A stretch of 32,800 bases of DNA. It comes from an uncultured Candidatus Saccharibacteria bacterium. Its GTDB lineage: Bacteria; Patescibacteriota; UBA1384; CAJBMM01. The stretch lies in contig CAZLPY010000002.1 of NCBI GenBank assembly GCA_964561525.1, positions 1 to 32,800 of the forward strand. The letters are read 5' to 3'. The position numbers and the translations under genes are program-made. A model generated the notes under the pieces. It was not told the origin of the DNA and did not search any database. It saw only the letters and a list, made by a program, of their open reading frames with translations. Below are positions 11,146 through 27,924 of this stretch, in pieces (positions within the stretch are counted from its first letter, which is position 1; the number at the start of each line of letters is the position of its first letter).

Positions 11146-11730
11146 TCAGAAGAACGTGTTGATTTGGAGTCGCAATCTCTCTGGTGCGGATCCGTTAAAC
11201 GAAAGTGGCTGCCAGTTCAGCCGGACGTTACTCGTGCCGATTTTCCAACGAATGGTCGGTCCAAGCCGAATTGGTGCTGCCCCCGAGTTCTCTCGCCAAA
11301 ATGAGACTACGATGCCCGCTTCACGATCATGACCTGCCTGCCAGCGAATCGATGATTCATTCGAAAAGAAGATCCTCGGCCCGCCATTCAGCGGCACATA
11401 TTGTGCCAGACTGATTGATACTTTGGCAGCACCGAGCGAATCGTTGTAATCAATCCATGGCTCAATGAACTGCTTGTTCTGTGTTGGCCATGTCACAGCA
11501 TAGGCACCGATTGAGAGGGTTTTGCTGACAGGCCACAGGCGGCCAATCTGCAAATCCTGAGCCTGTCGCGTGTTCCAACCAAATGCCCACAGCTCAATCT
11601 GCGGTGTCAGCACCCCGATGGTATCATACGGCTTCCCACCGCGCGTGGCATCGAAACGATTGATAAGGATGGTCTGAGCCTCTGTGGTTCCACACAACGC
11701 CAGACAAAATATCACTGCAATGAGTTTCAT
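11146..11730 (-). CDS. Secreted beta-strand protein, outer-membrane beta-barrel-like (cargo A3)
   Basis: Start moved to MKLIAVIF; signal peptide ending TEA-Q; alternating hydrophobic strands; ends RLQINTFF; paralog of 27334-27924. Confidence 0.7.
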   Translation of the reverse strand: MKLIAVIFCLALCGTTEAQTILINRFDATRGGKPYDTIGVLTPQIELWAFGWNTRQAQDLQIGRLWPVSKTLSIGAYAVTWPTQNKQFIEPWIDYNDSLGAAKVSISLAQYVPLNGGPRIFFSNESSIRWQAGHDREAGIVVSFWRENSGAAPIRLGPTIRWKIGTSNVRLNWQPLSFNGSAPERLRLQINTFF

Positions 11731-11734
11731 GATT

Positions 11735-11855
11735 GTTCCCCGACGTTTTGGGCAGTCGGCACCACTAGATTTGGTTGTTAAAGCGAGCATCTCTGCTCAA
11801 GAAAATGGGTTGCGGTTGTACACCACAACCCGACTTCACTTGAGAAGAATTACTC
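11735..11855 (-). promoter_or_regulatory. Intercistronic structured element 1: long hairpin, boxA-like motif, AATCTAGTGG, short stem-loop
   Basis: Hairpin 11785-11855; GCTTTAACAA; AATCTAGTGG (11771-11762); CCGAC-TGCCCAAAAC-GTCGG. Confidence 0.7.
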
Positions 11856-12188
11856 GTTGAGCTGAAGACCATGGAGACTCATGCTATGCAGCCCACGACG
11901 CAGGTAGATCGTTTTTTGATGAGGCCAGCACTCATGTACTTCATCGAGCCTCCAGAGGTCATTGGGTGACTCGACGCCGTTTCTTAAGAAGCGCTCACCG
12001 TCCCCACTGGGGTCATTGCGGAGGCTATCGCAGTCGATAGCGAAACCACTTAAAATGACTCCACCGGTGCCATTAACAACGGCATTGCCGACAACCTTCA
12101 TCTCCGCCACACAATGACCATCGTACGGTCGATAGGTACAAGACCTAACCATATAGGTACCCGGCTGAGGCATTTCCGATTTGGGCAT
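11850..12188 (-). CDS. Hypothetical protein (cargo A2)
   Basis: Start moved to MPKSE (ATG 12188, GGGGAG RBS); no recognised family. Confidence 0.65.
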   Translation of the reverse strand: MPKSEMPQPGTYMVRSCTYRPYDGHCVAEMKVVGNAVVNGTGGVILSGFAIDCDSLRNDPSGDGERFLRNGVESPNDLWRLDEVHECWPHQKTIYLRRGLHSMSLHGLQLNE

Positions 12189-12193
12189 CTTTT

Positions 12194-12321
12194 TCTCCCC
12201 ACCTGTTAGGGCCGGTGGCGCCACTAGATTTTAAGGTGATACGAGCTAGATTTCTCTGCTCAGGGAATCGGATGAATAAGCACTGCTTGCTCATCCGGTC
12301 CTTCTGAAAAGAGATTTACCT
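12194..12321 (-). promoter_or_regulatory. Intercistronic structured element 2, homologous to element 1
   Basis: Hairpin about 12248-12321 with the shared TGAGCAGAGA arm; TCACCTTAAAA; AATCTAGTGG (12230-12221); CCACC-GGCCCTAACA-GGTGG. Confidence 0.7.
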
Positions 12322-12579
12322 TTTTCTGAAGTAGGCAGTGTGGTTCCGTACTGTGAACAAGCCGTCACCGACGGAATTATCTCTTCTCTCGCAAATCAAC
12401 TGCACTTCATGCTTCGTTTCGATATAGTTGAGAAGCTCCAGGTAGGACATATATGTATGTTCGGCACCATCCTTGTGCTCCCCATCGTACTTGATCTTCT
12501 TGTCTCCCTCGGTATAAGTCGCGCTGAATTTACGACACCCGTGGTCGAACACATGCTCAACCTCCAGTTGGGTAATCAC
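12316..12579 (-). CDS. Hypothetical protein (cargo A1)
   Basis: 87 aa, GTG start with GAGGAG RBS. Confidence 0.7.
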   Translation of the reverse strand: MITQLEVEHVFDHGCRKFSATYTEGDKKIKYDGEHKDGAEHTYMSYLELLNYIETKHEVQLICERRDNSVGDGLFTVRNHTAYFRKR

Positions 12580-12610
12580 AAGCCGCTCCTCAATGAAAAT
12601 ATTGGTACTT

Positions 12611-12686
12611 CGCGCCTGAGAAAGAGTTTCAGCTCTAATTCCCTAGCGTGATGAATCAGTGTAGCATATTATTTACGTTTTGTCAA
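12611..12686 (-). promoter_or_regulatory. Module A cargo promoter and leader hairpin
   Basis: TTGACA (12686-12681), 17 bp, TACACT with extended TG; imperfect hairpin 12611-12650. Confidence 0.75.
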
Positions 12687-12765
12687 TAGTTTGGGATGAC
12701 AAATAATACATAGTATGATATATTGGTTGTGCTATGATAATTGAAAGCATCAAACGGAGGCTAAA

Positions 12766-13617
12766 TTGAGTCCAAAATCCAGTGGTAATGCATGGTTAGC
12801 TGGGATCGCGATTATAGCATTGGCGATTTCGTTAACAGCGTTGATGGGGACAAAAAAGAATAATAACGTAAGTCAGCGCGATAGCTTAGCTGAAATTCAA
12901 AAAACAAAAATAATGAATGTTTGCGTCGCCGAATGGCCACCATTCAGTATCAAAGATGCAAAAACGGGTAAATATTCTGGTGTAGATATAGATGCCCTAG
13001 AAGCAATTGCAAAATCTCTTGGCGCAAATGTTTCCTACCACGACACAACTTTTGGTAACTCACCTGCAGCCGTCCAATCAGGTACCTGCGATGTAGCCAC
13101 CTCACTTTACGTCACACCCAACCGAGCAGCAGCAGTCAATTTTACGCGTCCAATTCTTTTTGGCGGGGATACTGCATTAGTGAAAAAAGGTGATACACGG
13201 TTTAAAACCGTTGCCGATCTGGATCAATCAGGCATCAAAGTCGCAACTGCAACGGGTGAATCAGGCGATATTTATGCTAAAGCGAATTTCACAAAGGCTA
13301 CGATAGTGGCAATTGACGTAGACTCATCTGATCAAACAAGGTTCTTGCTCGAAGTGACATCGGGGAGGGCTGATGTAGGAATTGCCGACTACAATACGAT
13401 CGCTAATTTCGCAAAAGCACACCCAGAAACTGCGGTGCTGTTTCAAGATAAACCGTTTAATCTCAGCGCTGATGCATATGGTGTGCGATATGGTGATACT
13501 AATTTCTTAGATTTCTTGAACAGTTCATTATTAACTATGCAAACTAATGGAACGTGGGATCAGATCGAAAAAAAATATAGCGCCCAAGCATTTCATCAGC
13601 AACTCGACATTAGATAG
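12766..13617 (+). CDS. Polar amino-acid ABC transporter substrate-binding protein (SBP family 3)
   Basis: N-terminal anchor; EWPPFS, GVDID, TPNRAAAVNFTRP and GRADVGIAD; GGAGG RBS with TTG start. Confidence 0.92.
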   Translation: MSPKSSGNAWLAGIAIIALAISLTALMGTKKNNNVSQRDSLAEIQKTKIMNVCVAEWPPFSIKDAKTGKYSGVDIDALEAIAKSLGANVSYHDTTFGNSPAAVQSGTCDVATSLYVTPNRAAAVNFTRPILFGGDTALVKKGDTRFKTVADLDQSGIKVATATGESGDIYAKANFTKATIVAIDVDSSDQTRFLLEVTSGRADVGIADYNTIANFAKAHPETAVLFQDKPFNLSADAYGVRYGDTNFLDFLNSSLLTMQTNGTWDQIEKKYSAQAFHQQLDIR

Positions 13618-13625
13618 AGACAGAC

Positions 13626-14294
13626 ATGTATCAGTGGAATTGGAATATCGTTTTCCAATATCGATATGTTTTTATACAAGGAGCGGCAACTACCGTATGG
13701 TTGACGTTCCTTGTGGTAGTTCTTGGTACAGCTCTTGGGGTACTTATCGGACTCGCCCGTAGGAGTGAAGCACCATTTATCCCTACTTTAGCAAAGATAT
13801 ATATAGAACTTTTTAGGGCTCTGCCCATTTTGGTCCTCTTAATCTGGCTTTATTATGTTTCTCCTATAATACTGGGAATTCAGCTGTCACCATTTATTAC
13901 AGCATTGGTAGCTTTAGCAATTAATTTGTCAGCGTTCGTAGCTGAAACAGTACGGGCTGCTATAGAATCAATTCCTACTAATCAGTTTGAGTCGAGTATT
14001 ACATTGGGTTTAAGCTCAACACAAACAATGATTTATATTATTCTGCCGCAAGCGATAAAAAATATGTTACCTAACCTGATGGGTTTATATGTTAATCAGC
14101 TAAAGAACTCTTCATTGGCTTCAGTGATTGCAGTTAATGAGGTATTACATCGCTCGAACTCGATCATTAGTAACACATACCGCCCGCTTGAGGTCTATAC
14201 CACAGTAGCCATTGTTTACTTAATTCTGATTATTCCTTTCTCGCTATTAGCCAACTGGATCGAGAATAGAATCGACAAAACGAGAAAAATCTAA
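13626..14294 (+). CDS. Amino-acid ABC transporter permease (HisM/GlnP type)
   Basis: YIELFRALPILVLL, AFVAETVRAAIESIPTNQFE and LKNSSLASVI. Confidence 0.94.
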   Translation: MYQWNWNIVFQYRYVFIQGAATTVWLTFLVVVLGTALGVLIGLARRSEAPFIPTLAKIYIELFRALPILVLLIWLYYVSPIILGIQLSPFITALVALAINLSAFVAETVRAAIESIPTNQFESSITLGLSSTQTMIYIILPQAIKNMLPNLMGLYVNQLKNSSLASVIAVNEVLHRSNSIISNTYRPLEVYTTVAIVYLILIIPFSLLANWIENRIDKTRKI

Positions 14295-15484
14295 TGGTCA
14301 TACTTGAGGTCAAAAATTTATCTAAAACTTTTTATAGTAATAAGAAACAGGCTGCTCTATCAAATGTCTCGTTTACGGTTGATGAAGGAGAGATTGTTTG
14401 TTTGATCGGACCGAGTGGCTCAGGTAAAAGCACGCTACTTAGATGTCTTTCTGGACTCGAGGAAATTGATAAGGGTGAAATTATCTTGCTCTCCAGCAAT
14501 AAACTTCATCACTACAATCGAGCTGCGCTAGATGCTATTAAAGAAAACGTAAACATAGTTTTCCAAGATTATAATCTCTGGCCTCATAAAACAGTAATGG
14601 AAAATATTATTTTCGCACCCGTCACCAGAAAAAAAATGTCGATAGATAAAGCAACAAAAATGGCATCTGACTTACTAAAACGTTTTGATTTATATGATAA
14701 AAAAGATGCTCATCCAGACTTTTTATCAGGCGGTCAACAACAACGGGTGGCTATTATTCGCGCACTTACTCTTCAGCCAAAACTTTTGCTATTGGATGAA
14801 ATTACCTCAGCGCTAGATCCCGAACTTGTCTCAAGCGTCTTTAATCTTATCAAGGTATTAGCCAAAGAAGGCCAATCTATGATAATCGTGACTCACAATT
14901 TGAAATTTGCATCTGAAGTCGCTCATAAAATAATCTTCCTAGACGGTGGTCGCATAATTCAACAAGCTCCAGCCCGTGATTTTATTTACGCTCAAAGCAA
15001 CCCTCGAATCGCTGATTTTTTACAGACATTTTCTCTCAACAAGCATGAAATAAATGTATATGAAGGTTTCGATCAATTTCAAGCTTTTCAAATGGGTACT
15101 TTGAAACGATTTAAAAGAGGCTCAGCAAAACACGTAGTGGCATCTTCGGGCGATAGATGGTTTGAATCAATGGGTGCCTTTTATGAAGCATATGAAAGAG
15201 AACGGGTTGAAAAAGAAATTTCGTGGCGCATGGTTATGTATAAAGAGTCACCGCTTGATAGAGATATACGGCTACGGTATCCAAAATTAAATGAGTATAG
15301 GCTAATTCCAAAAAATATGGAGAATCCAGCAAATTATTACGTCATTGAAGATATCGTAGTGATCCAAATATTTGGCAAACTTGGTGATGAGCCATCAATC
15401 ATCGAGATTAAAAACAAAGATGTTGCTCAAAGCTATATGAATTATTTCAATCTGCTGTGGGAACAAGGCAGAAAGCTTAAATGA
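14294..15484 (+). CDS. Amino-acid ABC ATPase (GlnQ/HisP type) fused to a C-terminal TrmB-like effector domain
   Basis: GPSGSGKS, LSGGQQQRV, LLLDEITSALDPE; about 145 extra aa from INVYEGFD to YFNLLWEQG align with the C-terminal half of 15481-16203. Confidence 0.88.
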   Translation: MVILEVKNLSKTFYSNKKQAALSNVSFTVDEGEIVCLIGPSGSGKSTLLRCLSGLEEIDKGEIILLSSNKLHHYNRAALDAIKENVNIVFQDYNLWPHKTVMENIIFAPVTRKKMSIDKATKMASDLLKRFDLYDKKDAHPDFLSGGQQQRVAIIRALTLQPKLLLLDEITSALDPELVSSVFNLIKVLAKEGQSMIIVTHNLKFASEVAHKIIFLDGGRIIQQAPARDFIYAQSNPRIADFLQTFSLNKHEINVYEGFDQFQAFQMGTLKRFKRGSAKHVVASSGDRWFESMGAFYEAYERERVEKEISWRMVMYKESPLDRDIRLRYPKLNEYRLIPKNMENPANYYVIEDIVVIQIFGKLGDEPSIIEIKNKDVAQSYMNYFNLLWEQGRKLK

Positions 15485-16203
15485 TGGAAAAAGAGTTAGA
15501 AAAGCTAGGATTTTCAGTGCATCAGGCGGAGGTTTATTTGGCCTTAATCGACATTGGCCAAACTGGCGCGGGTGAGATAGTCAAGCAGACTGGCTTACAC
15601 CGCAACATTGTCTACGAAACGCTCGATAAACTAGTCGCCAAACACTTGGCCACCAAAGTCACCGAAAAGAACGTGGCGCAGTTTGTGGCTACTGACCCTA
15701 AGCGCATTCAAGAACACATTAAAGCAAACTTAGATCAAGCAGAGATGCTGGTGCCGCAATTAGTGGAACGGGCCAATATTCAGCAGGATATTGTAGTGTA
15801 CAACGGCATTGAAGGGTTTCGCACCTACAACATGGAGGCGCTTTCCAGAATACGGCGCGGCGGCTCGCAATACGTTTTGGGCTCAGTTGGCAACCTGTGG
15901 TACGAGCTGATGGGGGAACAATATCGAAAGTACGAAAAATTGCGATTAAAGAAGAAAATTTGGTGGAAGATGATCGCCTACGAGGAATCAGAGCGTGATC
16001 AAGCGTTGATTGACGAAAAAAAGCTTATTGAGGTACGCATTATCCCCCGCAAACTCTCTACCCCAGCCAACATGCACATTTGGGAAGGCACTGTAGCTCT
16101 GCAAATGGTAGTAGAGCCCTATACGGTAGTAGAGATTCGGAACAAGGCTCTGGCAGAGAGCTATTTGAACTACTTTAACTTGCTGTGGGAGCAGGGAAAG
16201 TAA
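15481..16203 (+). CDS. TrmB-like transcriptional regulator (module A)
   Basis: LEKLGFS...AEVYLALID...HRNIVYETLDKLV wHTH; VYNGIEG; YFNLLWEQG. Confidence 0.88.
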   Translation: MMEKELEKLGFSVHQAEVYLALIDIGQTGAGEIVKQTGLHRNIVYETLDKLVAKHLATKVTEKNVAQFVATDPKRIQEHIKANLDQAEMLVPQLVERANIQQDIVVYNGIEGFRTYNMEALSRIRRGGSQYVLGSVGNLWYELMGEQYRKYEKLRLKKKIWWKMIAYEESERDQALIDEKKLIEVRIIPRKLSTPANMHIWEGTVALQMVVEPYTVVEIRNKALAESYLNYFNLLWEQGK

Positions 16204-16205
16204 AG

Positions 16206-16233
16206 CCGGCTTGAGCGTGGTGACTCAAGCCGG
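16206..16233. terminator. Hairpin between convergent genes, likely bidirectional terminator
   Basis: CCGGCTTGAG-N8-CTCAAGCCGG, perfect 10 bp stem. Confidence 0.7.
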
Positions 16234-16236
16234 ATC

Positions 16237-16848
16237 TTAAAACTTATGGAACACCTCCGTTCTAATTTGGCAGGATCCAGTTAACGGACCGCTCAGGAAT
16301 TGGCCGAGGCGGGTACGTGAGCACCATTCTCCTCGCTTCCACTCTACAAGCGTGCCCAGTTGAAATGTTATCGGTTTGCCCGATCGGACGTTCAGTGCCC
16401 AGCCAAGACCGGCCGAAACCTCATGGCTTACTGGCCACACCAGGCGGCTGTTCGGCATATTGAGCTCCCATGGACTACCCGAAGGTTTAAACCCAAGATA
16501 ATGTGGTCCACTAAGCTTTCCGCCCAATACTGGCACAGAAAAGACAGAGTAGGCCCCGATTGATACGATGCGATCTTGCTCGATGAGCTGCTCAGCGTAG
16601 AGCCCGAGGCGGCCTTTGACAGTCCTCGCCTTCCACGAGCCTGTATAGGCGACGAGCTGTAACAACCTGCCCGGCACGTGTGGTGAGCCAATTTGTAACA
16701 ACTCACCCACTCTCGGCATGATCAATTGTTCAAAGAGAGTGGGGCTGCCTTTGCGGAGTGAGCTAAGGTAGCCTCCACCTGCTAGGTTCGACTGTGCCGT
16801 GGCATGCGTAGCCATAATACTCAAGGCTATGACTGTAAGCGTTTTCAC
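16237..16848 (-). CDS. Secreted beta-strand protein, beta-barrel-like (cargo B)
   Basis: GTG start with GGGGGA RBS; signal peptide ending ATA-Q; ends QIRTEVFHKF; shares WPVS and SIGAY with cargo A3. Confidence 0.65.
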   Translation of the reverse strand: MKTLTVIALSIMATHATAQSNLAGGGYLSSLRKGSPTLFEQLIMPRVGELLQIGSPHVPGRLLQLVAYTGSWKARTVKGRLGLYAEQLIEQDRIVSIGAYSVFSVPVLGGKLSGPHYLGFKPSGSPWELNMPNSRLVWPVSHEVSAGLGWALNVRSGKPITFQLGTLVEWKRGEWCSRTRLGQFLSGPLTGSCQIRTEVFHKF

Positions 16849-16861
16849 TAGTACGTCCCCC

Positions 16862-16929
16862 TTGTTTTAAGTGCTTCTTGCGATGTATGCAAGAATGATG
16901 TAGTGTATTATAAAGATTGCGAGTGGCAA
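16862..16929 (-). promoter_or_regulatory. Module B cargo promoter, leader hairpin and boxA-like motif
   Basis: TTGCCA, 16 bp, TACACT (overlapping TATAAT); TTCTTGC-N7-GCAAGAA; GCACTTAAAACAA. Confidence 0.65.
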
Positions 16930-16940
16930 ATATGACCCTA

Positions 16941-16958
16941 TGGTGATATCTATCACCA
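16941..16958. promoter_or_regulatory. Palindromic operator candidate
   Basis: TGGTGATA-TC-TATCACCA in the divergent intergenic region. Confidence 0.55.
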
Positions 16959-16974
16959 CTTATAACATTTGGGG

Positions 16975-17032
16975 CTCCTCACCCCTTCTCTCTCCTCCGA
17001 GAGGAGAGGGTGGTCGGAGACCGGGTGAGGAG
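16975..17032 (+). repeat. GC-rich three-stem palindromic element covering the TrmB RBS
   Basis: CTCCTCACCC/GGGTGAGGAG outer stem; CTCTCCTC-CGA-GAGGAGAG; GGTC-GGA-GACC. Confidence 0.65.
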
Positions 17033-17037
17033 TGATT

Positions 17038-17790
17038 ATGTATACAGAACTATTTCAGGAGCTTGGATTAGCTCAAAACGAGGCGCGGATTTACGAAACG
17101 TTGCTTCGAGAAGGAGAGTCGTCTGTCGGTCATATTTCTGCAGAAGCAAAAGTGCATCGGCGAAATGTGTATGACTCCCTCAACCGACTAATCGAAAAAG
17201 GATTAGTATTTGAGATCATGCAGCGCAATGAAAACCGCTATCAGCCAGTAGACCCACACAAACTAGCAGAAACAATTGACGAAAAACAACATGCGCTTTC
17301 AAAAGTAATGCCGGAATTAGAAAAGCTCTATCAAGGCAAACCTCATCACGACGAAGTGTATGTGTATCGTGGCCTCGAGGGCTGGAAAAACTACATGCGC
17401 GAGATATTGCGCGTCGGCGAGGACTGGTATTCGATTGGAGCGAAAGCTGCCTTAAACAGCCATAAGCTACCCGGTTTTTTTGAGATGTTTCGTACGGAGT
17501 TAGGAAAGAAGAACATCACTTCTTATAACCTCTATGATCCGAGTGTCAAAGGAACCGAATACGAAGGTCATTTGGGCTCGTCTTATCGCTTTTTGCCCAA
17601 AGAATATCACACTTCCTGCACGGTCATTATCCTGGCCGATCGGATCTTTTTGTTCTCCGGTATCACGCTCGGTGATTTCAACGAAGACTTTTCGTTCACC
17701 GTGATCGTGAACGCAGAGCTCGCCAAAGCTTATAAAATTTGGTGGCAATTTATGTGGGATATGTGCCCAGCGGTTAAAAAACCAAAATGA
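17038..17790 (+). CDS. TrmB-like transcriptional regulator (module B)
   Basis: FQELGLAQNEARIYETLL...HRRNVYDSLNRLIEKGLV; VYRGLEG; WQFMWD; ATG 17038 fits the GAGGAG spacing better than GTG 17032. Confidence 0.88.
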   Translation: MYTELFQELGLAQNEARIYETLLREGESSVGHISAEAKVHRRNVYDSLNRLIEKGLVFEIMQRNENRYQPVDPHKLAETIDEKQHALSKVMPELEKLYQGKPHHDEVYVYRGLEGWKNYMREILRVGEDWYSIGAKAALNSHKLPGFFEMFRTELGKKNITSYNLYDPSVKGTEYEGHLGSSYRFLPKEYHTSCTVIILADRIFLFSGITLGDFNEDFSFTVIVNAELAKAYKIWWQFMWDMCPAVKKPK

Positions 17791-17853: not shown

Positions 17854-19095
17854 TTATGTCTGATTGTTAGGGGATGAGTGAAACGCCAACGTTAGAGCAG
17901 CGGCGAACCAGATGACGAGGTCGTTTTTCCATAACGAATTATCCACCATACCAAGTATCACAAACGCCATGAGCAATACCGCTCCTAGGGCCGCTGTAGC
18001 CGATTTTCGGCGGTAAGCTGACCGAACAGCTATACCAATGAGCCCTACCAGTCCTACAAGCCCCGCCAAGCCAAACAATAACCAAGTATAAAGAAAGATG
18101 TTATGCGGATGCACCGCGTAGGGCGTAATGAACTCATCAAAGTTTGGCTGATGCAAGGTAAACTGCTGGAACGTATCATGAAATGAAGTCAGGCCAATAC
18201 CGAATATTGGATGCGATGTAATGAGCCCCCAGCTTTTTTGCCAAATGTGTACTCGAATGTCCGCATTGTCAGGGTGGCGCAGCGCTACAAAAGTCAACAC
18301 GATAGGATTATACAGCAGTAAGGTTGTTGCAAAAACGCCGAGGCTGAGGCGCTTCTTGCCGGCAGACCACAGTAACCACAATACGGTAGCAAGGATCGCC
18401 GCTACCACGCCGCCTCGCGAACCAGTCGCAAGGATTGCAGCTCCGATCACCCCAACAACCCACAGATCACTGGCGCGTTTCAGCAACACCAAGCTTGCTA
18501 CCAAACTGAGTACCAGTACCATGGCAAGTGCATTGGGAGAGTTAAACAATCCGACAACTCGATGAACAGTCAGATATTGTGACGTCTCTGGAACGCCTAC
18601 GCTCCACCTAGTAGCAACCGCGGGGATAAGCTGCACTAGACCAAGGACGGCCAGCCCAATGCCTTGCGCTCGCATACCGCGGATCATCACGGTAACGGTA
18701 CCTTCGGTCAACGCTCGCGAAAACATCCAGTAGCTTAAGCACAGCGGCACCACCCAACCTTTGATGATGCCAAGGGCGGTGTGCTTATCTGGTGAGACGA
18801 CAAACCCAATGATCGCAACCATAGCTACGATGATCAAACTGATTATTTCGGCAGAGTGTAAAGTGCGCCATTTGGGGTAGGCTACCCAAGCCGCAATTGC
18901 AAAGGCATAGATCAGTATCTCGAGCACATTGGTTGGAATCCCAAAAAGCGAAAAATGAATAAGATAGAGGAACGATAATCCAGGAAGCAATAAAACTAAA
19001 TTCGAAATTCGTTCGCGAGGAACGAGGGTAGGCTCTGCCGCCATTTCGAAATTCGAAATTTTGCCTGAATTTATTTTACCCGCCTCCTGCTTCAT
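17854..19095 (-). CDS. O-antigen ligase/polymerase family membrane protein (WaaL/Wzy_C)
   Basis: RVVGLFNSPNALA, TGSRGG, RVHIW, HPIFGIG and HPHNIFL; start uncertain. Confidence 0.88.
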   Translation of the reverse strand: MKQEAGKINSGKISNFEMAAEPTLVPRERISNLVLLLPGLSFLYLIHFSLFGIPTNVLEILIYAFAIAAWVAYPKWRTLHSAEIISLIIVAMVAIIGFVVSPDKHTALGIIKGWVVPLCLSYWMFSRALTEGTVTVMIRGMRAQGIGLAVLGLVQLIPAVATRWSVGVPETSQYLTVHRVVGLFNSPNALAMVLVLSLVASLVLLKRASDLWVVGVIGAAILATGSRGGVVAAILATVLWLLWSAGKKRLSLGVFATTLLLYNPIVLTFVALRHPDNADIRVHIWQKSWGLITSHPIFGIGLTSFHDTFQQFTLHQPNFDEFITPYAVHPHNIFLYTWLLFGLAGLVGLVGLIGIAVRSAYRRKSATAALGAVLLMAFVILGMVDNSLWKNDLVIWFAAALTLAFHSSPNNQT

Positions 19096-19098
19096 ATT

Positions 19099-20526
19099 TT
19101 ATGCCTTACGTTTTGACTCGGCAAAAATAATATTCTGCACCGCAATCGCTAACCCAAACAGCACCCAAATGTGCATAATGTAAAAGGTAGAGAAAAACTG
19201 GTATTGCGCTAACACGCCAACGATCGCTGCGACCAACCCAAGCATGGTGGCGCGTAAAAACGGATCTTTTGCGGCAAACAAGGCCTGCATTGACCGTAAC
19301 AGCAGTAAATACAAAAATAGGATGCAAGCTACCGCCCCGACCATCCCGGTCTCAGCCAGTATTTCAAGTGGTCCGTTGTTCACAATGGCCCAGCCGTCTT
19401 TCGGCAGCTCAGTCGGATAGCCAGCCACCCAGGGCCCGAAGTTACCGATGCCAACACCGGTGTACGGTGATTGATTAAACGCTTCAATAGCTTGATCAAA
19501 GGTGCTCAAACGCTGCTCCGTGCTGGCATCTGCCTGAATCTGGGTAAAGTGTTTTTGCACTTCATCGATCGATTTTTGCCCCAGATTGGAAAAGTTCAAT
19601 AAAGCTGCCACGGCGATAATCACCAAAAAACTACCGAACAGCGTGCTTAGTATGACGGTAGGGCGCAGCACAAAAAATACGCTACCGAGCAGTATCACTA
19701 CCAAACTAGCGGCCATCCCCACGTAGCCGCCACGCGCCAAGGTTAAAATTAAGACCAAGCCTGGCACGGTGATCACTGCTGCCAAAAACCACCAAGCATA
19801 GTGGCTCACTCGACGGAGGCCGTACGTTAACGCCAACGACAATGGGATCATTAAAAAGTTCGCTAAATAAAGTGGTTCAAGCGCTGTAGCCTGGATGCGC
19901 GGGAATCCAAATACGGCCTTAGTGTAGAGCTCGCGCAGACCGGTTAGTGCGGTAGGTAGGCCAATAATATCGCCAACAAATTGATACAAACCAAACAGCG
20001 ATACCAGAAACGTAGTGATGAATAGCACCCGCACCACTCGATCAACGGCTGCTTTGTCCTGAACCAGCGCTGGGATGATCCAGATTGTGAGTGAAGTAAA
20101 GATCATAAAGACACACACTTCAAGGCCACGGGTAATAGCTTGCATGTGCCAAAACGAACTGAGAAGTGCGATCAAAAAAAGTAGATACGCCGGCGCATAC
20201 GGCGATAACGTCAGCCAAAAGGTGCGCCGCTGCAGGGCTCGTAGCATAAAACTAATGAGCAAACTGATCAAAATAACTTGGCTGATGCGAACCGTCACTC
20301 CGCCAACTTGGAGTGAGGGGATGCGCTCAAATGGTAAGGCGAAAATAAATACCATGAGGCCAATTTTGGCATCAATCAGTTCAAGGGTAACCAAGGTGAC
20401 CACAAGCAGCAACCCTAACAACATAGCGGGAACGGTCACTAAATTACGGGCGAAGCTCACCCCAATCAGTATCGCCAGCAAAAACATCAAAACAACATAT
20501 GTGGGTTGCAAGATACTACGACGCAT
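19099..20526 (-). CDS. O-antigen ligase family membrane protein
   Basis: Start moved to MRRSILQP; RIQATALEP, TLARGG, SPYTGVGIGNF and LAETGMVG. Confidence 0.85.
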   Translation of the reverse strand: MRRSILQPTYVVLMFLLAILIGVSFARNLVTVPAMLLGLLLVVTLVTLELIDAKIGLMVFIFALPFERIPSLQVGGVTVRISQVILISLLISFMLRALQRRTFWLTLSPYAPAYLLFLIALLSSFWHMQAITRGLEVCVFMIFTSLTIWIIPALVQDKAAVDRVVRVLFITTFLVSLFGLYQFVGDIIGLPTALTGLRELYTKAVFGFPRIQATALEPLYLANFLMIPLSLALTYGLRRVSHYAWWFLAAVITVPGLVLILTLARGGYVGMAASLVVILLGSVFFVLRPTVILSTLFGSFLVIIAVAALLNFSNLGQKSIDEVQKHFTQIQADASTEQRLSTFDQAIEAFNQSPYTGVGIGNFGPWVAGYPTELPKDGWAIVNNGPLEILAETGMVGAVACILFLYLLLLRSMQALFAAKDPFLRATMLGLVAAIVGVLAQYQFFSTFYIMHIWVLFGLAIAVQNIIFAESKRKA

Positions 20527-20554
20527 CGCTATGATACTTTCTTTGATATAAACG

Positions 20555-21382
20555 TTAGTTGTGCACGTGGGAAGCACGACGAGGGTGAGCCAGGTCAAGT
20601 AAACGGGTCGGCAAACCGCCACCACTCCGCCACGAATATCGAATGCGAAATGCCCATTTATCATACCACGTTCCGCGCTGCTCTACATAACGGCGTGCGT
20701 CACGAAACCAACCGCTCGGCACCACCAACATGTCATGAAAATCGCAGTACAATATACCACCATAGCGTACCCGTACCTGGTCTAACACGCGCGACACTAC
20801 ACCGTTATGCAGCAGATTCTCAGCCCACAGCAGTACGGCCAAGTCCTGCGATGCAGGCACGTGCATCCGTTTTATGGCGCTCGTGCGCACCAAGCACAAT
20901 GCCCCAGCAAAATGAGCTTGTGCATCAGTGTGCACCTCGTGCATTCCTCGGAGATGAAACGGCCATTTACCTGCTTGAGCTGCACCGTAATACACACCAC
21001 TGCCATCTTGACGCACTACCGCAGGAAGCAATAATCCTATTTCAGAATACCGATTAAAAGCATCCGCCAGTTGGTGAATAGTGCTCGGTTCAACGAGGGT
21101 TCCCGCCTCGATGATAATCAAGCCGAGAGCGCTGCTGTAGCGTGCTCGCTCAATGGCTTGCTCCAACAGCGTTGATTGTAGCGCGTGTGGAGACGATAAA
21201 ATGGGCAATCCGCGAAAATCTCGCGCTACCGCGGTTCTGATTGCATGCTCACCATACGGTATCAAAATCACTATTTCATGATTGCGGTATCTGCTAGCCA
21301 GTACCGAATGAATGGTGGTGTAGACCTGGGCTAAGTCGCCATGTGCCACGATCATCGTTAGAAACTTGGGTTGGACGTGCAT
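20555..21382 (-). CDS. Degenerate glycosyltransferase family 2-like protein
   Basis: TIHSVLASRYRNHEIVIL resembles a GT2 N-terminus; the expected Asp motifs are missing. Confidence 0.55.
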   Translation of the reverse strand: MHVQPKFLTMIVAHGDLAQVYTTIHSVLASRYRNHEIVILIPYGEHAIRTAVARDFRGLPILSSPHALQSTLLEQAIERARYSSALGLIIIEAGTLVEPSTIHQLADAFNRYSEIGLLLPAVVRQDGSGVYYGAAQAGKWPFHLRGMHEVHTDAQAHFAGALCLVRTSAIKRMHVPASQDLAVLLWAENLLHNGVVSRVLDQVRVRYGGILYCDFHDMLVVPSGWFRDARRYVEQRGTWYDKWAFRIRYSWRSGGGLPTRLLDLAHPRRASHVHN

Positions 21383-21493
21383 GATTTCTCCTCATAGCCG
21401 CCCCTCCATTAGCGAATAACACGATATTGTTGCACATTCGCGACATAGATGCAAGATTTCTATCGATTTACCACAAAAAATAGCGATAAATAA

Positions 21494-21563
21494 TCAATGA
21501 CAAATTTCTAATTACTAAATAATGACATAATGTCTAAATGCTCATTGGAGACTTGGGAATTAA
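21494..21563. repeat. Heptamer array (TAATGAC type)
   Basis: CAATGAC AAATTTC TAATTAC TAAATAA TGACA TAATGTC ... TCATTGG AGACTTG GGAATTA. Confidence 0.7.
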
Positions 21564-22808: not shown

Positions 22809-22867
22809 ACAGTAATACTCCTACTGATAGTATGCCTCAACAAGGGACTGGGGGGCAATGGCGTGGG

Positions 22868-22976
22868 AACGACGAATGTCTAAAATTAGCACTGGGATTT
22901 ATTTAGTCATTCGACATTACCCATTCGGCTGCGCTCAGGGTAAGCTGAGCACTGTCGAAGCTTAGAAATTAGATAT
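22868..22976. repeat. Heptamer array with an embedded palindromic REP-like unit
   Basis: GTCATTC GACATTA [TTCGGCTGCGCTCAG GGTAAG CTGAGCACTGTCGAA] GCTTAGAAATTAGATATT. Confidence 0.7.
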
Positions 22977-24053
22977 TCACTTGTTCACGACTTGATGATA
23001 AACATCGAGCGTTTCCTTAGCACATCTCTCCCACGAAAAACGCTGTGCTTGTGTATGGCCTTTTGCAATCATCTGCGCACGAAAATCCGACTGCTGCAAC
23101 AGGCGAGCGATTCCCGAAACCCACGCACTCTGGTCATGAGGCGAGAGCGTGATGCCGCCATCGCCAACCACCTCAGGTAGTGATGAAGTATTGCTCGAAA
23201 TAACCGGGGTACCGCAGGTCATCGCCTCAAGCGGTGGCAGCCCAAATCCTTCGTAAATTGAGGGGAATAAAAAGATATCGGTGCCATGATACAGGGCCGG
23301 TTTATCAGCGTCCTGAACATAGCCAGTAAAGCGTACGTCATCCTCAAGCCCAAGTTTGGTCACCAAGCGGAAAAGCTGGTCGTAGTGCCAGCCTTTTTTG
23401 CCGGTGATGACCAGTGTATGGGGCAGATGATGCTCCTTTTTTGCTTGAAAAAACACCTTGACTAAAAATTCCAAATTCTTGCGCGGATTGATGGTGCCAA
23501 CGTTCAGCAGATATGGGCTGGTGATGCCGTACTTTTCACACACCGCATCAACCTGCTTTGGGCTGACAACTTGCCTAAATTCTTGTCCAGCCGCTAAATG
23601 AATCACTGATATGCGCTCTGCCTCTATCCCCAGTTTTTGCACAATATCGTCTTTAGAATGATTCGAAATGGTAATAAAATGATCGGCAAAGTGATACGAA
23701 TAGGGCATCCATTTGGAGTAAAATTGGCGGGAGAAAAAGGGAATGTTGGTGTGAAATAGGCTAATCACATCGTGAATGGTCACAATTTTTTTACCCGAGT
23801 ACAGGATTGGCACCGAAAACGCTGGCTGATGTAGTAAATCCACCCGGGCCGAGCGGGCAGCGAGCGGTAGCGTTACTTGATCCCACCACAGGCGCCCAGG
23901 AGTAGATAGATCGTCCTGCCGCTCGGGATAAAATAACTCAAACTGATCATCGCTCGACACTTCCTTGAGCGCCCGGGTTAAATTTTCCACATAAAACCCA
24001 AAGCCGGTCTTTTCCCCTAGAGTAGTCTGTGCATCTATACCAATTCGCAACAA
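22977..24053 (-). CDS. Glycosyltransferase family 4 (GT-B)
   Basis: [19 protein letters not shown] and [16 protein letters not shown]; TTG start with GGAGG RBS. Confidence 0.94.
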
Positions 24054-24173
24054 AACCTCCGGTTTCTAGTATGGATGATACCAAGTTTGGGCTGCTTCGT
24101 CGATCAAGATTTGCTAAAGTCGTAACTTGGGATAGACTAACAATGCAGACTCTTACAAGTGGAGGAGGTAGGA

Positions 24174-24455
24174 ATGGCCCAAGTAACGCTCGACAACTTA
24201 GCCGTTATGGTTCAACAAGGATTTACCGAGTTACGTGACGAATTAATTTCGCGTATGGATGCTCGATTTGATAAAATTGAGGACGAGCTGCGCTATATCC
24301 GCAATGATATTCGCTTGTTAAGCATGCGCCTGGACGCATTCGAGAAAAAGACTAACGAGGACTCCGATGTATACCGTCATGAGATTGTGGACCTGCGCCG
24401 CCACATCCAGTTGCTCGAAAAGCGCTTAGTCAAGCTCGAAAAAGCCCGAGGTTAA
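24174..24455 (+). CDS. Small coiled-coil hypothetical protein
   Basis: Start moved to MAQVTLDNL (GGAGGAGG RBS); heptad pattern throughout. Confidence 0.75.
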   Translation: MAQVTLDNLAVMVQQGFTELRDELISRMDARFDKIEDELRYIRNDIRLLSMRLDAFEKKTNEDSDVYRHEIVDLRRHIQLLEKRLVKLEKARG

Positions 24456-25177
24456 CCCTCCGCCGCTTGCCACATAAATTCAAAACAGGCCCGGAAGGTA
24501 TCTACAATTCCTGATCCTTCGATGACGATGGTGTGGATGTCCGTATCGTATGAAACTAAAGCTAATTTGTTTTCATAGAGAATAATATCAGTCGACAGTG
24601 GGTTTGCGCCCGGCCAATAGCGGATTTCCTGCTGCGGTTTTTTGAAAAAACGTTCGTATGCCACTGGTCCAGCTTGTGTGGCGATTAACTCTCGAACTCG
24701 CACGTTGTTCTGTGCGATGCGCTTGGCCAAATCTGGTGAATACTGCCCCCATATTTTGACCACAAACTCGGGCGAATAAATATTATCATAGGCCTTGATG
24801 GTCGTTAAATACTCATAAATTGCTCGCACCTCTTCTTTGCCCTCGTAAAACCGCACCTTTGGCTTATTGGGCGCTCTATTATAAACCGATCGCAGCTCCG
24901 GCATCAATTGATTCAAGCGCTCCCAGCGATTTTTTAGCGTGCGCGATAGCACTTGGGGATCCTCCGCTACGTATCGCCGGCGATTATTTTTTTCGAAATA
25001 ACTGACCAGCCCTTTTTTCATCAGCGTATCGAGCACTAAATAACAATTCGGCCGAATAATATCGGCTTTTTTAGCGATTGGCTGCACTGTCGAGTCACCT
25101 AATTCAAGCAGCGCCACGTACACCCGTGACTCTTTTTCATCTAGCCCTAATTCCTGCAAAACGTTTATATCATCCAT
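24452..25177 (-). CDS. TrmB-like transcriptional regulator (module C)
   Basis: LQELGLDEKESRVYVALLELG...RPNCY; KPKVRFYEG; FEFMWQAA. Confidence 0.9.
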   Translation of the reverse strand: MDDINVLQELGLDEKESRVYVALLELGDSTVQPIAKKADIIRPNCYLVLDTLMKKGLVSYFEKNNRRRYVAEDPQVLSRTLKNRWERLNQLMPELRSVYNRAPNKPKVRFYEGKEEVRAIYEYLTTIKAYDNIYSPEFVVKIWGQYSPDLAKRIAQNNVRVRELIATQAGPVAYERFFKKPQQEIRYWPGANPLSTDIILYENKLALVSYDTDIHTIVIEGSGIVDTFRACFEFMWQAAEG

Positions 25178-25182
25178 TCGTA

Positions 25183-25213
25183 TTATCGTATATTATTTAC
25201 TACGATAAATCAA
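25183..25213 (-). promoter_or_regulatory. trmB(C) promoter with overlapping palindromic operator
   Basis: TTGATT, 17 bp, TACGAT, 7 nt to ATG; palindrome TTATCGTA-N10-TACGATAA (25183-25208). Confidence 0.7.
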
Positions 25214-25270
25214 CATATTGAGCTTAGGTGGGAATAACAAGATTAGATTTTATGAATATTATGATCGATA

Positions 25271-25367
25271 ATCGTATATGATACTTGACATTATCCCAAT
25301 AACATGCTATGATGTCCTATCGCTTAGGAAATACATATTCACTTAAGCGAGAACCTAAACAAAGGAG
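25271..25367 (+). promoter_or_regulatory. Module C cargo promoter, leader hairpin and boxA-like motif
   Basis: TTGACA (25285), 17 bp, TATGAT with extended TG; TCGCTTA...TAAGCGA (25320-25350); GAACCTAAACAA; AGGAG. Confidence 0.75.
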
Positions 25368-25374
25368 CTTAGAT

Positions 25375-25890
25375 ATGGCCAGTATGTTTCCACCTGTGGG
25401 CATGTTGATCGTTGGTGCATTGTTTGTCGGCGCAGGCATCAGATTCTTCCGCGCGAGCGGAGATATTGGCCCGCATGCGCGTTATGAGAAGGGTTTCCTA
25501 CGAGACGTGTATCGCTTATGCGGAGTCGGAATGTTTATCTTCGCCTGTTTGAGCCTCGGTACGCGTTCTCCTCGACCTGAAGCCAATGAATGGGCCTACT
25601 ACACCAGCTACCGTAGCGAGAAGAAGCTGAGCTGGCTCAAGCCAGAGATTAGCACTTACTACGGACCATTCGACTCCTCCGCCAAGATAATCCAGGACGG
25701 TGAAGGGTATGCCATCGTCATTCCGGCTAAAAAGCTTCGAGTGACTGAATACCCGGTGATTAACGGTCGCTATGAGCACGTTCGTTACATCTGGCTGCAA
25801 AAGCCGGGTGGGCGTATGATCGGATGCTGGGATACTCTTTATGGCGACTGGTACAAGACAGACTATGGCAACTGGCATCCCCCGGGATAA
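25375..25890 (+). CDS. Hypothetical membrane protein with two TM helices (cargo C1)
   Basis: Start moved to MASMFPP because ATG 25309 lies inside the -10 box; two hydrophobic segments then an aromatic-rich domain. Confidence 0.7.
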   Translation: MASMFPPVGMLIVGALFVGAGIRFFRASGDIGPHARYEKGFLRDVYRLCGVGMFIFACLSLGTRSPRPEANEWAYYTSYRSEKKLSWLKPEISTYYGPFDSSAKIIQDGEGYAIVIPAKKLRVTEYPVINGRYEHVRYIWLQKPGGRMIGCWDTLYGDWYKTDYGNWHPPG

Positions 25891-25897
25891 GTACCTA

Positions 25898-25926
25898 CAG
25901 CCCCAACGCGAAACGCGTTGGGGCTG
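25898..25926 (+). promoter_or_regulatory. Intercistronic perfect hairpin
   Basis: CAGCCCCAACGCG-AAA-CGCGTTGGGGCTG with no U-tract, followed by GTAACCTTAA and ATCTAG. Confidence 0.7.
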
Positions 25927-25965
25927 GTAACCTTAATGGCACATCTAGCCGAGAGGAGAATCGAT

Positions 25966-26334
25966 ATGAGCACAGGAATGTACGTACTTTTTGCCGCAAT
26001 CACCTTTGCGAGTTTCTGCGGAGCAATGAGTGTAGCAACAAAAACACATGTGAGACGCTACGAGGTCATTTTTATTTTGTGCATCCTGATATGCTCTACA
26101 AGTGGAGCATGGCTCTTTGGCAATCTGTTAGTATTGTTTACCGGTAATCCGGAGCATCGCGAGCACAGAAAGGTCAGCTTCATCGTTTTGGAGAAGCGCA
26201 TTGAGGACCACCACGACAGGACTGGGCATATTGGTACACCTATGCTGCTTGACCAGGACAGACACAAGCACTATGTCGAGGAAAGCTTATTCAACCGTGC
26301 TCATGAAGGTCAGCCAATTACATTTGAGAAGTAG
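25966..26334 (+). CDS. Hypothetical membrane protein with two TM helices (cargo C2)
   Basis: Start moved to MSTGMY (GAGGAG RBS); C-terminal small beta domain ending FNRAHEGQPITF. Confidence 0.7.
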   Translation: MSTGMYVLFAAITFASFCGAMSVATKTHVRRYEVIFILCILICSTSGAWLFGNLLVLFTGNPEHREHRKVSFIVLEKRIEDHHDRTGHIGTPMLLDQDRHKHYVEESLFNRAHEGQPITFEK

Positions 26335-26348
26335 GGAATCGAACTATC

Positions 26349-26379
26349 CACCTCGCGTCGTCTCGACGTGGGGTGTTTT
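26349..26379 (+). terminator. Module C terminator
   Basis: CACCTCGCGTCG-TCT-CGACGTGGGGTG-TTTT. Confidence 0.8.
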
Positions 26380-27103
26380 ATGTCTTCGCAGCTTGCCACA
26401 TGTACTCAAACATTTCTCGATGCGTATCAACAATCCCTGATTCCTCAATCATCACCGCATGCGGATCGGCAGCGTACGAGACAATGGCTAGCTTATTTTC
26501 GTAAATGAGAATGTCGGAATAGATGTTAGTGGTGCTCGGCAAATAGCGCACCTGCTGCAGTGGCTTTTTCCAGCTTTGATGCTGGGGCAAATTGCGCTGA
26601 TCAGTAACGACAATTTCTCGGGCTTGAATGCCAGCTGCGGCCACTCGCTGCCCAAACTCGATCACGTAATCGCCGAAGATCGGCGTAACAGCATCGGTGC
26701 GATAGATATTGTCGTACGATTTTGCCAGTAATACCTGCTCGTAAATTTGTTTAATACCATCCTTGCCCTCGTAATAACGCACTTTAGGCTTGTGCGGCGC
26801 CCGGTTGTAGATCGATCGCAAATCGGGCAAGGCTGCGGCCACCATCTGGGCTCGTTCTTGGATTAGCTTACTTAAGACTTTTGGATCCTCGGCCACGTAG
26901 CGCCGCCATTTGTTACGTAAGTAGTAGCTAGCCAAGCCTTTTTGCACTAACTCTTCTAAGATGTCGTAGCAGTTGGGCCGTTGAAACCTTGCTTTTTCGG
27001 CAATGGCCGCTACTGGCGAATCTCCCAACTCCAATAAGGCCAGGTAGACCTTACTCTCGCGATCTGATAATCCTGCACTAACCAATAAATGTTCTAAATC
27101 CAT
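26378..27103 (-). CDS. TrmB-like transcriptional regulator (module D), close paralog of module C regulator
   Basis: Same length (241 aa); shares ALLELGDS, RPNCY, RRYVAEDP, YNRAP and YENKLA. Confidence 0.9.
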   Translation of the reverse strand: MDLEHLLVSAGLSDRESKVYLALLELGDSPVAAIAEKARFQRPNCYDILEELVQKGLASYYLRNKWRRYVAEDPKVLSKLIQERAQMVAAALPDLRSIYNRAPHKPKVRYYEGKDGIKQIYEQVLLAKSYDNIYRTDAVTPIFGDYVIEFGQRVAAAGIQAREIVVTDQRNLPQHQSWKKPLQQVRYLPSTTNIYSDILIYENKLAIVSYAADPHAVMIEESGIVDTHREMFEYMWQAAKT

Positions 27104-27112
27104 TATTCCTCA

Positions 27113-27140
27113 CTAGTTGTATAAAATATACTACAAATAG
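27113..27140. promoter_or_regulatory. Palindromic operator upstream of trmB(D)
   Basis: CTAGTTGTA-N10-TACAAATAG, positionally equivalent to the module C operator. Confidence 0.65.
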
Positions 27141-27207
27141 AATAACATCTTCTGTGTTATAGAGCAAATTAAGATCAATTTATGCCGCGAATAGTAAATA
27201 TCATTAT

Positions 27208-27330
27208 GTATAAAAATATTGACTTTTATATCTGAATGTGCTATTATAGTCTATTCGCTGCGGCATACCTGCTGCGGTGAAGTCATTAAACAATCCAGTG
27301 GCGGCGACTGCCCGAACAGTCGCTAAGGAG
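27208..27330 (+). promoter_or_regulatory. Module D cargo promoter, leader hairpin, boxA-like motif and AATCCAGTGG stem-loop
   Basis: TTGACT (27219), 17 bp, TATTAT with extended TG; 12 bp hairpin 27254-27281; GTCATTAAACAA; AATCCAGTGG; GCGACTG-CCCGAA-CAGTCGC; AAGGAG. Confidence 0.78.
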
Positions 27331-27333
27331 AAC

Positions 27334-27924
27334 ATGATGCGCTACCTTGGAATTTTCCTGCTGGTGCTTGCCGCACCAAGCATCGCTCAGACGACGTATG
27401 TGCACCGCATTGATGGTGGGCATGGCCTGGTGCCGAGTCACACCATCGGCGTGGTAACACCATACGGTGAAGGCTGGATCTTTACCTTTCCTGCTTTCCC
27501 AGATGTCGAGTTAGGCAAGCTATTTACCCTCTACAACAGAGGGCCTCACAGTTTGCTTGGTGGAGGCTACGCCGCAACTTGGACAAAGACCAGTCAGTAC
27601 TTTGCGTTGCCCTGGTTAACCTACAATGGCACCTTTGGGCGATGGAAAACTAACATCAACTTGGCCAGCTATCAGCCCCTAAATGGCGGGCCAACCATCT
27701 TTTTCTCAGATGAGAGTAGTGTGGTGCATGAGCTGAAATCTGGCCTTAGTCTGGGCATTGCAACCACTTACTGGTCACAAGCTGGTGCCACTACACCGTG
27801 GCGCTTTGGACCGATTCTGAAGGCCACTCTCAACAAATCCGTGGCCATTTCCGCCCGTTATTTGGGAGTTGGCTCATCCAAGCACGGCGATACCGCTCGG
27901 CTTGAGGTCTCGTTCAGCTTTTAG
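27334..27924 (+). CDS. Secreted beta-strand protein, outer-membrane beta-barrel-like (cargo D1)
   Basis: Start moved to MMRYLGIF; signal peptide ending SIA-Q; PLNGGP.IFFS.ESS shared with cargo A3; ends RLEVSFSF. Confidence 0.72.
   Translation: MMRYLGIFLLVLAAPSIAQTTYVHRIDGGHGLVPSHTIGVVTPYGEGWIFTFPAFPDVELGKLFTLYNRGPHSLLGGGYAATWTKTSQYFALPWLTYNGTFGRWKTNINLASYQPLNGGPTIFFSDESSVVHELKSGLSLGIATTYWSQAGATTPWRFGPILKATLNKSVAISARYLGVGSSKHGDTARLEVSFSF

Follow-up and report, generated by a model that had tools for sequence, protein, structure and literature searches.

Transmembrane β-barrels are taken to be characteristic of outer membranes and derived organelles, and their assembly is regarded as dependent on the β-barrel assembly machinery (BAM). 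In Gram-negative bacteria the specific porins of the KdgM/NanC type come as sets of paralogs, each switched on under its own regulator. One study describes a further group, the COG4313 proteins, as 12-stranded barrels of 270-320 residues in mature form in which an N-terminal segment fills the lumen, and reports that they are thought to import hydrophobic molecules through a channel that would be 10-12 Å wide if unplugged (PMC4493636). Bacteria of the Candidate Phyla Radiation (CPR) are treated as monoderm in two reports (10.1101/2021.05.31.446380; PMC8871954). Here we describe three small genes, A3, B and D1, within a 32,800-nucleotide stretch of DNA (the window; positions 1 to 32,800 of contig CAZLPY010000002.1, below C2, of assembly GCA_964561525.1) from an uncultured soil bacterium, a Candidatus Saccharibacteria. 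Their products are predicted with high confidence, on modelling, to be outer-membrane-type transmembrane β-barrels, in a genome in which we find none of the outer-membrane biogenesis genes sought. The fold itself is known; new are the family, its size class, its pairing with regulators and, most notably, that it occurs where BAM is lacking and only one membrane is presumed. The full-text literature searched, which did not cover subscription journals, yielded no description of outer-membrane-type barrels in the CPR.

Three window genes and their predicted fold

The reading frames of A3 (11146..11730, minus strand, 194 aa from an ATG at 11730, with a longer in-frame start at 11790), B (16237..16848, minus strand, 203 aa, GTG start) and D1 (27334..27924, plus strand, 196 aa) are all intact, giving three copies on one contig. 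A first-pass annotation had singled out open frames at just these positions as exported, barrel-like paralogs; the coordinates stand, the minus-strand orientation of A3 and B having gone unmentioned, and the C-termini read in the translations as it reported, LQINTFF in A3, TEVFHKF in B and LEVSFSF in D1. By eye the N-termini resemble signal peptides, with Lys or Arg, a hydrophobic stretch and a small-x-small motif followed by Gln, the putative cleavage sites being ...TEA/QT, ...ATA/QS and ...SIA/QT. The paralogy claimed for A3 and D1 is borne out by 38% identity over 159 residues (E 4e-35) and by the common motifs TIGV.TP, Y.PLNGGP.IFFS.ESS and P.R.GP. B was rightly placed at a greater distance: in pairwise BLASTP it matches A3 at E 0.005 and D1 not at all. 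With profiles it is recovered as a remote member of the D1/A3 superfamily, since the D1/A3 family profile retrieves it from the genome at E 1.6e-6 and hhalign joins the B family (B and two homologs, 63-64% identical, from a word-index search) to the 96-sequence D1/A3 family end to end, over 186 columns, with a probability of 96.7% and E 3.9e-10. No copy beyond these three was found by phmmer across the six-frame open reading frames (ORFs) of the genome.

Modelling of D1 by AlphaFold2 with a 96-row family alignment produced a 12-stranded closed barrel with loops of 4-9 residues, at a predicted local distance difference test score (pLDDT) of 94.3 and a predicted TM-score (pTM) of 0.84, the five models all lying between pLDDT 93.7 and 94.3; a model built from a 2-row alignment of A3 and D1 had reached pLDDT 41 and was dropped. 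A low-confidence N-terminal helix (residues 4-12, the putative signal peptide) precedes the barrel, and strand 1 starts at residue 21, 1-2 residues past the predicted cleavage site. The assignment of B to the same barrel is based on its profile alignment to the D1 family.

The D1 model was compared with 48,161 representative PDB chains by VIA-align, a scan independent of Foldseek. The best match is FapF (5o65, Z 18.0, root-mean-square deviation (rmsd) 2.4 Å over 178 aligned residues), followed by KdgM (4pr7, Z 17.9), VhGalP (8xua, Z 17.8), a COG4313 channel (4rl8, Z 16.6, rmsd 2.5 over 178 residues), 5g26 (Z 16.5) and NanC (2wjr, Z 16.5), with several autotransporter barrels (NalP, BrkA, AIDA-I and Hbp) at Z 14-15 and the designed 12-stranded transmembrane barrel 9fdg at Z 13.5. 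Judged by title, the first 34 rows comprise 33 barrels that come from outer membranes or organelle envelopes or are designed transmembrane barrels, the exception being 5g26, whose title is uninformative; soluble barrels begin with Rv2717c at rank 35 (Z 9.2). Foldseek likewise places KdgM first (4fqe, E 6e-6, TM 0.64/0.72), and look-alikes retrieved with a protein language model are unnamed 200-residue clusters from diderm phyla, the named clusters being mostly KdgM/NanC, alongside other small barrels of the outer membrane. The barrel suspected from the sequence is thus recovered by both kinds of comparison, and the top matches are membrane barrels, not a soluble β-sandwich or a lipocalin. On this model A3, B and D1 are predicted with high confidence to be closed, 12-stranded transmembrane barrels of the outer-membrane type, with short loops on both sides.

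The strands had been described as amphipathic, and the alignment agrees. Lipid- and lumen-facing positions were assigned by strand parity on the alignment, not on coordinates, and by this assignment hydrophobic residues make up on average 72%, and polar or charged ones 12%, at 63 outward positions, against 34% and 32% at 65 inward positions. Parity fails in two strands, which probably contain bulges. Conserved inward charges include R25 (81/96), D27 (81), E46 (71), E59 (76) and R175 (66); G61, P93, Y113, P115, G141, G159 and R189 are near-invariant, and the loop between strands 7 and 8 carries a Y-x-P-L-N-G-G-P motif. We therefore predict a hydrophobic outer face around a polar lumen lined with conserved charged residues.

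The last strand shows this pattern most clearly, with positions 188, 190, 192 and 196 hydrophobic and R189 (88/95) and E/Q191 facing inward. The canonical BAM β-signal consensus includes a Gly position. Of the terminal-Phe β-signal that had been proposed for these proteins, the Phe holds, being the last residue in 70 of 104 family representatives. The remainder of the strand seems, as judged from aligned residues, to fit the canonical signal only loosely: three residues ahead of the C-terminal end there is a mixture of R, L and Q, and E or Q stands where the signal has Gly.

A family of small barrels and its relation to known porins

A profile of A3 and D1 searched against 1.84 billion protein cluster representatives matches 104 of them at E<=1e-3, A3 itself among them (226 bits against the family profile), 84 at E<=1e-10 and 21 at <=1e-30, nearly all of 185-210 aa. 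The family alignment consists of D1, A3 and 94 of these matches, ten having been excluded (P0012, identical to A3; the fragments P0090 and P0094; and P0109-P0115, which are weak, fragmentary or giant), and its mean column identity is 19%. The proteins have next to no annotation. The Pfam, NCBIfam and PHROG libraries hold no match for A3, B or D1 (in Pfam none at E<=1), sequences of solved structures give 0 matches to the family profile at E<=10, no family relative was found in viral contigs, a word-index search with D1 matched only D1 itself, and scans of genome contigs with D1 alone and with the B alignment returned no relative. Cluster look-up of ten of the 106 database homologs (nine of the 104 profile matches and one B homolog) showed nine singletons and one two-member cluster, the sole name among them being one 'hypothetical protein'. 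A3, D1 and, more remotely, B belong to a hitherto undescribed family whose members are small, with a mature length of about 175 residues, and have a signal-peptide-like N-terminus.

The proteins of the KdgM/NanC family (PF06178; 4pr7/4fqe, 2wjr, 8xua) are likewise monomeric 12-stranded barrels of similar size (Z 17.9, 16.5 and 17.8 for 4pr7, 2wjr and 8xua), also without an N-terminal plug and also present as several paralogs with a regulator each. Unlike them the window family is about 40 residues shorter, has much shorter loops and resides in an organism without genes for an outer membrane, BAM or lipopolysaccharide, and there is no sequence match: PF06178 finds nothing in A3, B or D1 at E<=1 and nothing in the genome at E<=0.1.

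The COG4313 proteins (PF13557, Phenol_MetA_deg; Pput2725 4rl8, TcpY, SphA), also 12-stranded, form the only Pfam family with a sequence signal. PF13557 is the only family to recur when the members are scanned, in 5 of 96 at E<=1, and its 22-bit cut-off is exceeded by 2 of the 106 proteins scanned, P0022 (26.5 bits) and P0025 (23.3 bits), in both through the C-terminal half of the model only. A search with PF13557 of 401 genomes sampled evenly across the phylum gave no match, yet no control genome matched either, so this result is uninformative. Each group has a conserved loop cluster rich in Pro, Gly, Tyr and Asn, as described for COG4313 in PMC4493636 and represented in the window family by Y-x-P-L-N-G-G-P. 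The window proteins differ in their mature length of about 175 residues, in having no segment that occludes the lumen and in the lack of any PF13557 match to A3, B or D1. The family therefore looks like a stripped-down relative of COG4313, some 100 residues shorter and plug-less, with membership not established.

FapF and the 12-stranded translocators of the autotransporter and intimin type provide the best structural match, and four relatives resemble autotransporters in that a B-type barrel forms the C-terminal domain of a longer chain, about 500-520 aa in all. A3, B and D1, unlike FapF and the autotransporters, have no passenger or plug domain, and the N-terminal part of the long relatives, unlike an autotransporter's, is a polytopic helical membrane domain and not a secreted passenger, with neither BAM nor the translocation and assembly module (TAM). 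The designed barrel 9fdg is equal in strand number, has minimal loops and is of similar length (179 residues), the window family differing from it in being natural and conserved and in its charged lumen and conserved loop motif.

An organism without outer-membrane assembly genes

The genome (1.10 Mb in 105 contigs, completeness 93.8%, contamination 3.8%) contains no detectable Omp85/BamA, LptE, LpxC, TolC/OEP, secretin or Skp/OmpH, although each of these searches was positive in 3-7 of 14 control genomes, and Omp85 is above cut-off in 0 of the 401 phylum genomes, whose sizes are 0.6-1.1 Mb. A single sub-cut-off Omp85 signal occurs among the 401, in a 1555-aa open frame of another genome (G050:C2:159686-162967; 18 bits, E 4e-4). 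Loss of the ribosomal protein uL30 is a hallmark of the CPR. In the window's genome uL30 (PF00327) was not found, although the stretch uL6-uL18-uS5-next gene-SecY is assembled gap-free with overlapping stop and start codons. At this locus (contig C23:8690-11878) a 159-aa gene, uL15 by position, overlaps the uS5 stop and precedes SecY, and has no Pfam match at E<=1e-3. The organism is thus of CPR/Patescibacteria type, with a small genome, no uL30 and no outer-membrane biogenesis genes, and its envelope is presumed monoderm. This agrees with the monoderm setting supposed in the first-pass annotation, which had asked for the taxonomy and for bamA and lpx to be checked: the features are CPR-like, and a diderm with BamA is not what the genome reveals.

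An organism that presumably has one membrane only and no insertase raises the question of whether the barrel enters a lipid bilayer at all. Instead it might self-associate, form a lattice in the wall or S-layer, or serve as carrier or anchor for hydrophobic material. The extremely short loops (4-9 residues) would suit such a role, COG4313 relatives are described as handling hydrophobic molecules in PMC4493636, and the abstract of a preprint describes the toga of Thermotogae as two-dimensional arrays of β-barrel proteins (10.1101/2022.09.22.508938). The lumen of the window family is polar and charged, though, and not lipid-binding, the strong structural matches are membrane barrels without exception, and the dedicated regulators and accessory status described below are ill-suited to an abundant lattice protein. 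We consider a location outside the bilayer quite improbable.

Spread of the family and constraint on its genes

In the window's class 22 of 162 genomes (19 of 126 genera) carry the family, often in two copies, and its profile matches 8 of the 401 genomes phylum-wide, three of them in that class, the window's own genome included. The family is enriched in the window's class. One class genome with two family copies is assembled as a single, closed-looking contig of about 0.8 Mb. In four of five ortholog pairs the ratio of non-synonymous to synonymous substitution rates (dN/dS) is 0.12-0.26, namely 0.26 (dS 0.54), 0.25 (dS 1.32), 0.22 (dS 1.36) and 0.12 (dS 2.44, saturated), the fifth being saturated and giving no estimate. 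Because of these low ratios we take the genes to be maintained by purifying selection and not to be relics.

A scan of metagenome contigs found a single family locus, L014, on a contig of 58% GC. In the product of its barrel gene (1194-2042, plus strand) an Ala/Pro-rich linker, about 45 residues long, separates the signal peptide from the barrel; the gene is neighboured by a LuxR-type response regulator and an ABC (ATP-binding cassette) system of the sugar/nucleoside type. An ortholog of this system's ATPase was found in none of the 162 class genomes, which offer generic ABC matches only, at <=34-37% identity over about half the protein. L014 therefore does not stem from a close relative, and the family extends beyond the window's class.

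These data bear directly on the view that the genes have no function and merely remain from a diderm ancestor or a recent transfer, or that the contig is contamination from a diderm. The bin does have 3.81% contamination and one family member does lie on the 58% GC metagenome contig. Against this, the frames are intact and under the constraint just described, 22 of 162 class genomes including the single-contig one carry the family, the pairing with a regulator is conserved, and the three copies lie on a contig, C2, whose tetranucleotide profile correlates with that of the remaining bin at r 0.979, the highest value of all (rank 37 of 37 contigs >=10 kb); because of this fit C2 is not a contaminant. 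The view is largely refuted, and we give it hardly any credence.

Regulators, leader motifs and fused forms

ORFs were clustered from 36 barrel loci, three from the window and 33 from relatives, with 1.5 kb of flank on each side. The only conserved neighbour is a gene for a TrmB-like winged-helix protein of about 250 residues, present near the barrel in 17 of the 36 loci and in 16 of those 17 lying upstream on the opposite strand, so arranged as to be divergent; by our own arithmetic, from 12 TrmB-like genes per 1.1 Mb, chance would place one in about 5% of 3.6-kb loci. In the window such a regulator (26378..27103, minus strand, PF01978 E 9.2e-13) is divergent from D1 and another (17032..17790, plus strand, PF01978 E 1.3e-16) from B. 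A third (15481..16203, plus strand, PF01978 E 6.3e-11), convergent with B, is the last gene of an ABC amino-acid uptake operon and follows genes with SBP_bac_3, BPD_transp_1 and ABC_tran domains. No regulator adjoins A3. Together with 24452-25177 these make four TrmB-like paralogs (PF01978) within 12 kb, of 12 genome-wide.

The 183 bp that separate B from the regulator divergent to it hold a perfect 7+2+7 palindrome, GGTGATA-TC-TATCACC (16942..16957), which is the single match in the window, with 0.01 expected in shuffles, and which is a candidate operator. A scan of four intergenic regions for inverted repeats of at least 12 nt turned up one weak palindrome only, near 25256-25277. D1 and A3 share a 17-nt leader motif, AGTGGYGSCGACTGCCC, found at 27297..27313 (plus strand) just 5' of the D1 ribosome-binding site and at 11750..11766 (minus strand) upstream of that of A3, two window matches where 0 are expected. 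Two long frames read the motif in different frames, so it is conserved at the nucleotide level; it was not seen 5' of the family members in the other genomes aligned. A hairpin in this leader of A3 and D1 was considered and rejected, its stability being no better than that of shuffles (z -0.45 and -0.66).

In three relatives from the class the B-type barrel forms the last ~190 residues of proteins of 509-524 aa (L030:469-2043, plus strand, 524 aa; L038:1489-3057, minus strand; L032:1492-3021, minus strand), and there is a fourth long open frame. The fused N-terminal domain, of about 320 residues, is predicted to cross the membrane with 2-3 helices and carries a conserved IWG..SW motif; Pfam gave no match to it, the window's genome has no homolog of it, and a word-index search with the long-form alignment matched one fragment. 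An internal hydrophobic segment aligns with the signal peptide of B and ends in AFA, ASA or AYA, that is, in small-x-small. At least while it is being made, the barrel of these organisms is tethered to a membrane protein of the producer itself.

Where the barrel might act

The one-to-one regulators, the neighbourhood of an uptake operon, the fusion to a membrane domain and the failure to find a delivery or chaperone gene lead us to favour, tentatively and at a little under an even chance, a regulated channel in the producer's own envelope, inducible and passive, that folds without BAM. After Sec export and cleavage by signal peptidase the short-looped barrel would fold into a lipid bilayer without BAM, the receiving bilayer most likely being the nearest one, either the cell's own membrane or the surface where a partner cell is touched. 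At that site the barrel would offer a path about 1 nm wide to small solutes or amphiphilic molecules that so reduced an organism must import, and the neighbouring regulator might, by analogy with the porins of the KdgM/NanC type, switch on each paralog in response to its own signal.

Several points weigh against such a channel. We know of no β-barrel in any cytoplasmic membrane. A pore standing open in such a membrane would run down the proton gradient, which is presumably maintained in this organism because an H+-pyrophosphatase gene is present in the window. The regulators score 20-40 bits against the NCBIfam TrmB equivalogs, whose cut-offs are 500-650, and match them at the N-terminus only; they share just the winged-helix domain with true TrmB, and a sugar signal is thus analogy. 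The AFA, ASA and AYA motifs of the long forms are possible signal-peptidase sites at which the barrel may be cut free, in which case the fusion tells little about its final location. Lastly, the family is patchy and fast-evolving, with 14% of class genomes, 8/401 phylum-wide and a mean column identity of 19%, and such patchy, fast evolution is typical of host-interaction factors and unexpected in a general uptake channel.

The same patchiness, with an accessory, multi-copy and fast-diverging character like that of host-range factors, would fit a second role, in which the barrels are exported effectors that lodge in a host's membrane, be it a diderm's outer membrane, as the first-pass annotation proposed, or some other host bilayer, and act there as pores for tapping nutrients. 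Fold and hydrophobic exterior are as compatible with this as with a channel of the producer's own, the producer has no outer membrane to receive the barrels, and the fact that β-barrels are not known from any cytoplasmic membrane points the same way; the two relatives that pass the PF13557 cut-off and the look-alikes from diderm phyla are compatible with acquisition from diderm partners. Delivery is the difficulty. A transcription factor is the only conserved neighbour and no delivery-system gene is among them, no Skp-like chaperone that could carry an unfolded barrel through the wall was found in the genome, and BAM works from the periplasmic side and could not be used from outside. The one-to-one regulators and the adjacent ABC uptake operon, moreover, resemble an uptake system. 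We judge export to a host membrane, the chief alternative to a channel of the producer's own, unlikely.

A broader proposition spans both locations, that these are genuine BAM-independent membrane barrel channels of a one-membrane bacterium, lying either in its cytoplasmic membrane, where they would be the first of their kind, or in a partner's membrane as pores for nutrient theft delivered on contact, and forming in some relatives the tail of a polytopic protein that is maybe a private assembly platform. This we regard as evenly poised. A conserved, selected and regulated barrel family without Omp85 in a one-membrane phylum breaks the link between barrels and the outer membrane and BAM. It bears on whether natural barrels can be installed without BAM, on how ultra-small, biosynthetically poor bacteria exchange solutes or lipids with their partners, and on the ancestry of the phylum, where an ancestral outer membrane stands against gene uptake from diderm neighbours. 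Proteins of about 175 residues with minimal loops should also be easy to express, refold and record, and are potential compact pores.

Other features of the region and of the relatives

A class-I S-adenosylmethionine (SAM) methyltransferase gene lies 3' of the barrel in three loci (window 27936-28604; L003:806-1498; L008:2207-2917). It was considered as a partner of the barrel and rejected, the three enzymes not being orthologs, and the adjacency is probably coincidental.

The fourth window regulator, 24452-25177, is divergent from two genes for small membrane proteins without known family (25309-25890 and 25918-26334), and a regulator placed beside a small surface gene may recur across this genome as a general module. 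The operon for ABC amino-acid uptake (binding protein, permease and ATPase) lies in a stretch of low GC (12766-15484; 0.40-0.435 against 0.48 for the genome) and may have been acquired horizontally. Further genes of the window, at 17854-20664, 6732-7979, 22977-24053 and 29422-30915, comprise two tandem Wzy_C (O-antigen-ligase-like) genes, two glycosyltransferases of family GT4 and a gene of the polysaccharide flippase type. As a set, and with LpxC and LptE absent from the genome, they resemble a cluster for a surface glycopolymer.

Among the giant matches excluded from the family alignment, P0110 (2786 aa) contains nine He_PIG domains, five Big_9 Ig-like repeats and a β-helix. It matches the barrel family profile weakly, gives a weak hit to an OmpA-like membrane domain at the C-terminus, and may be an adhesin with a barrel anchor.

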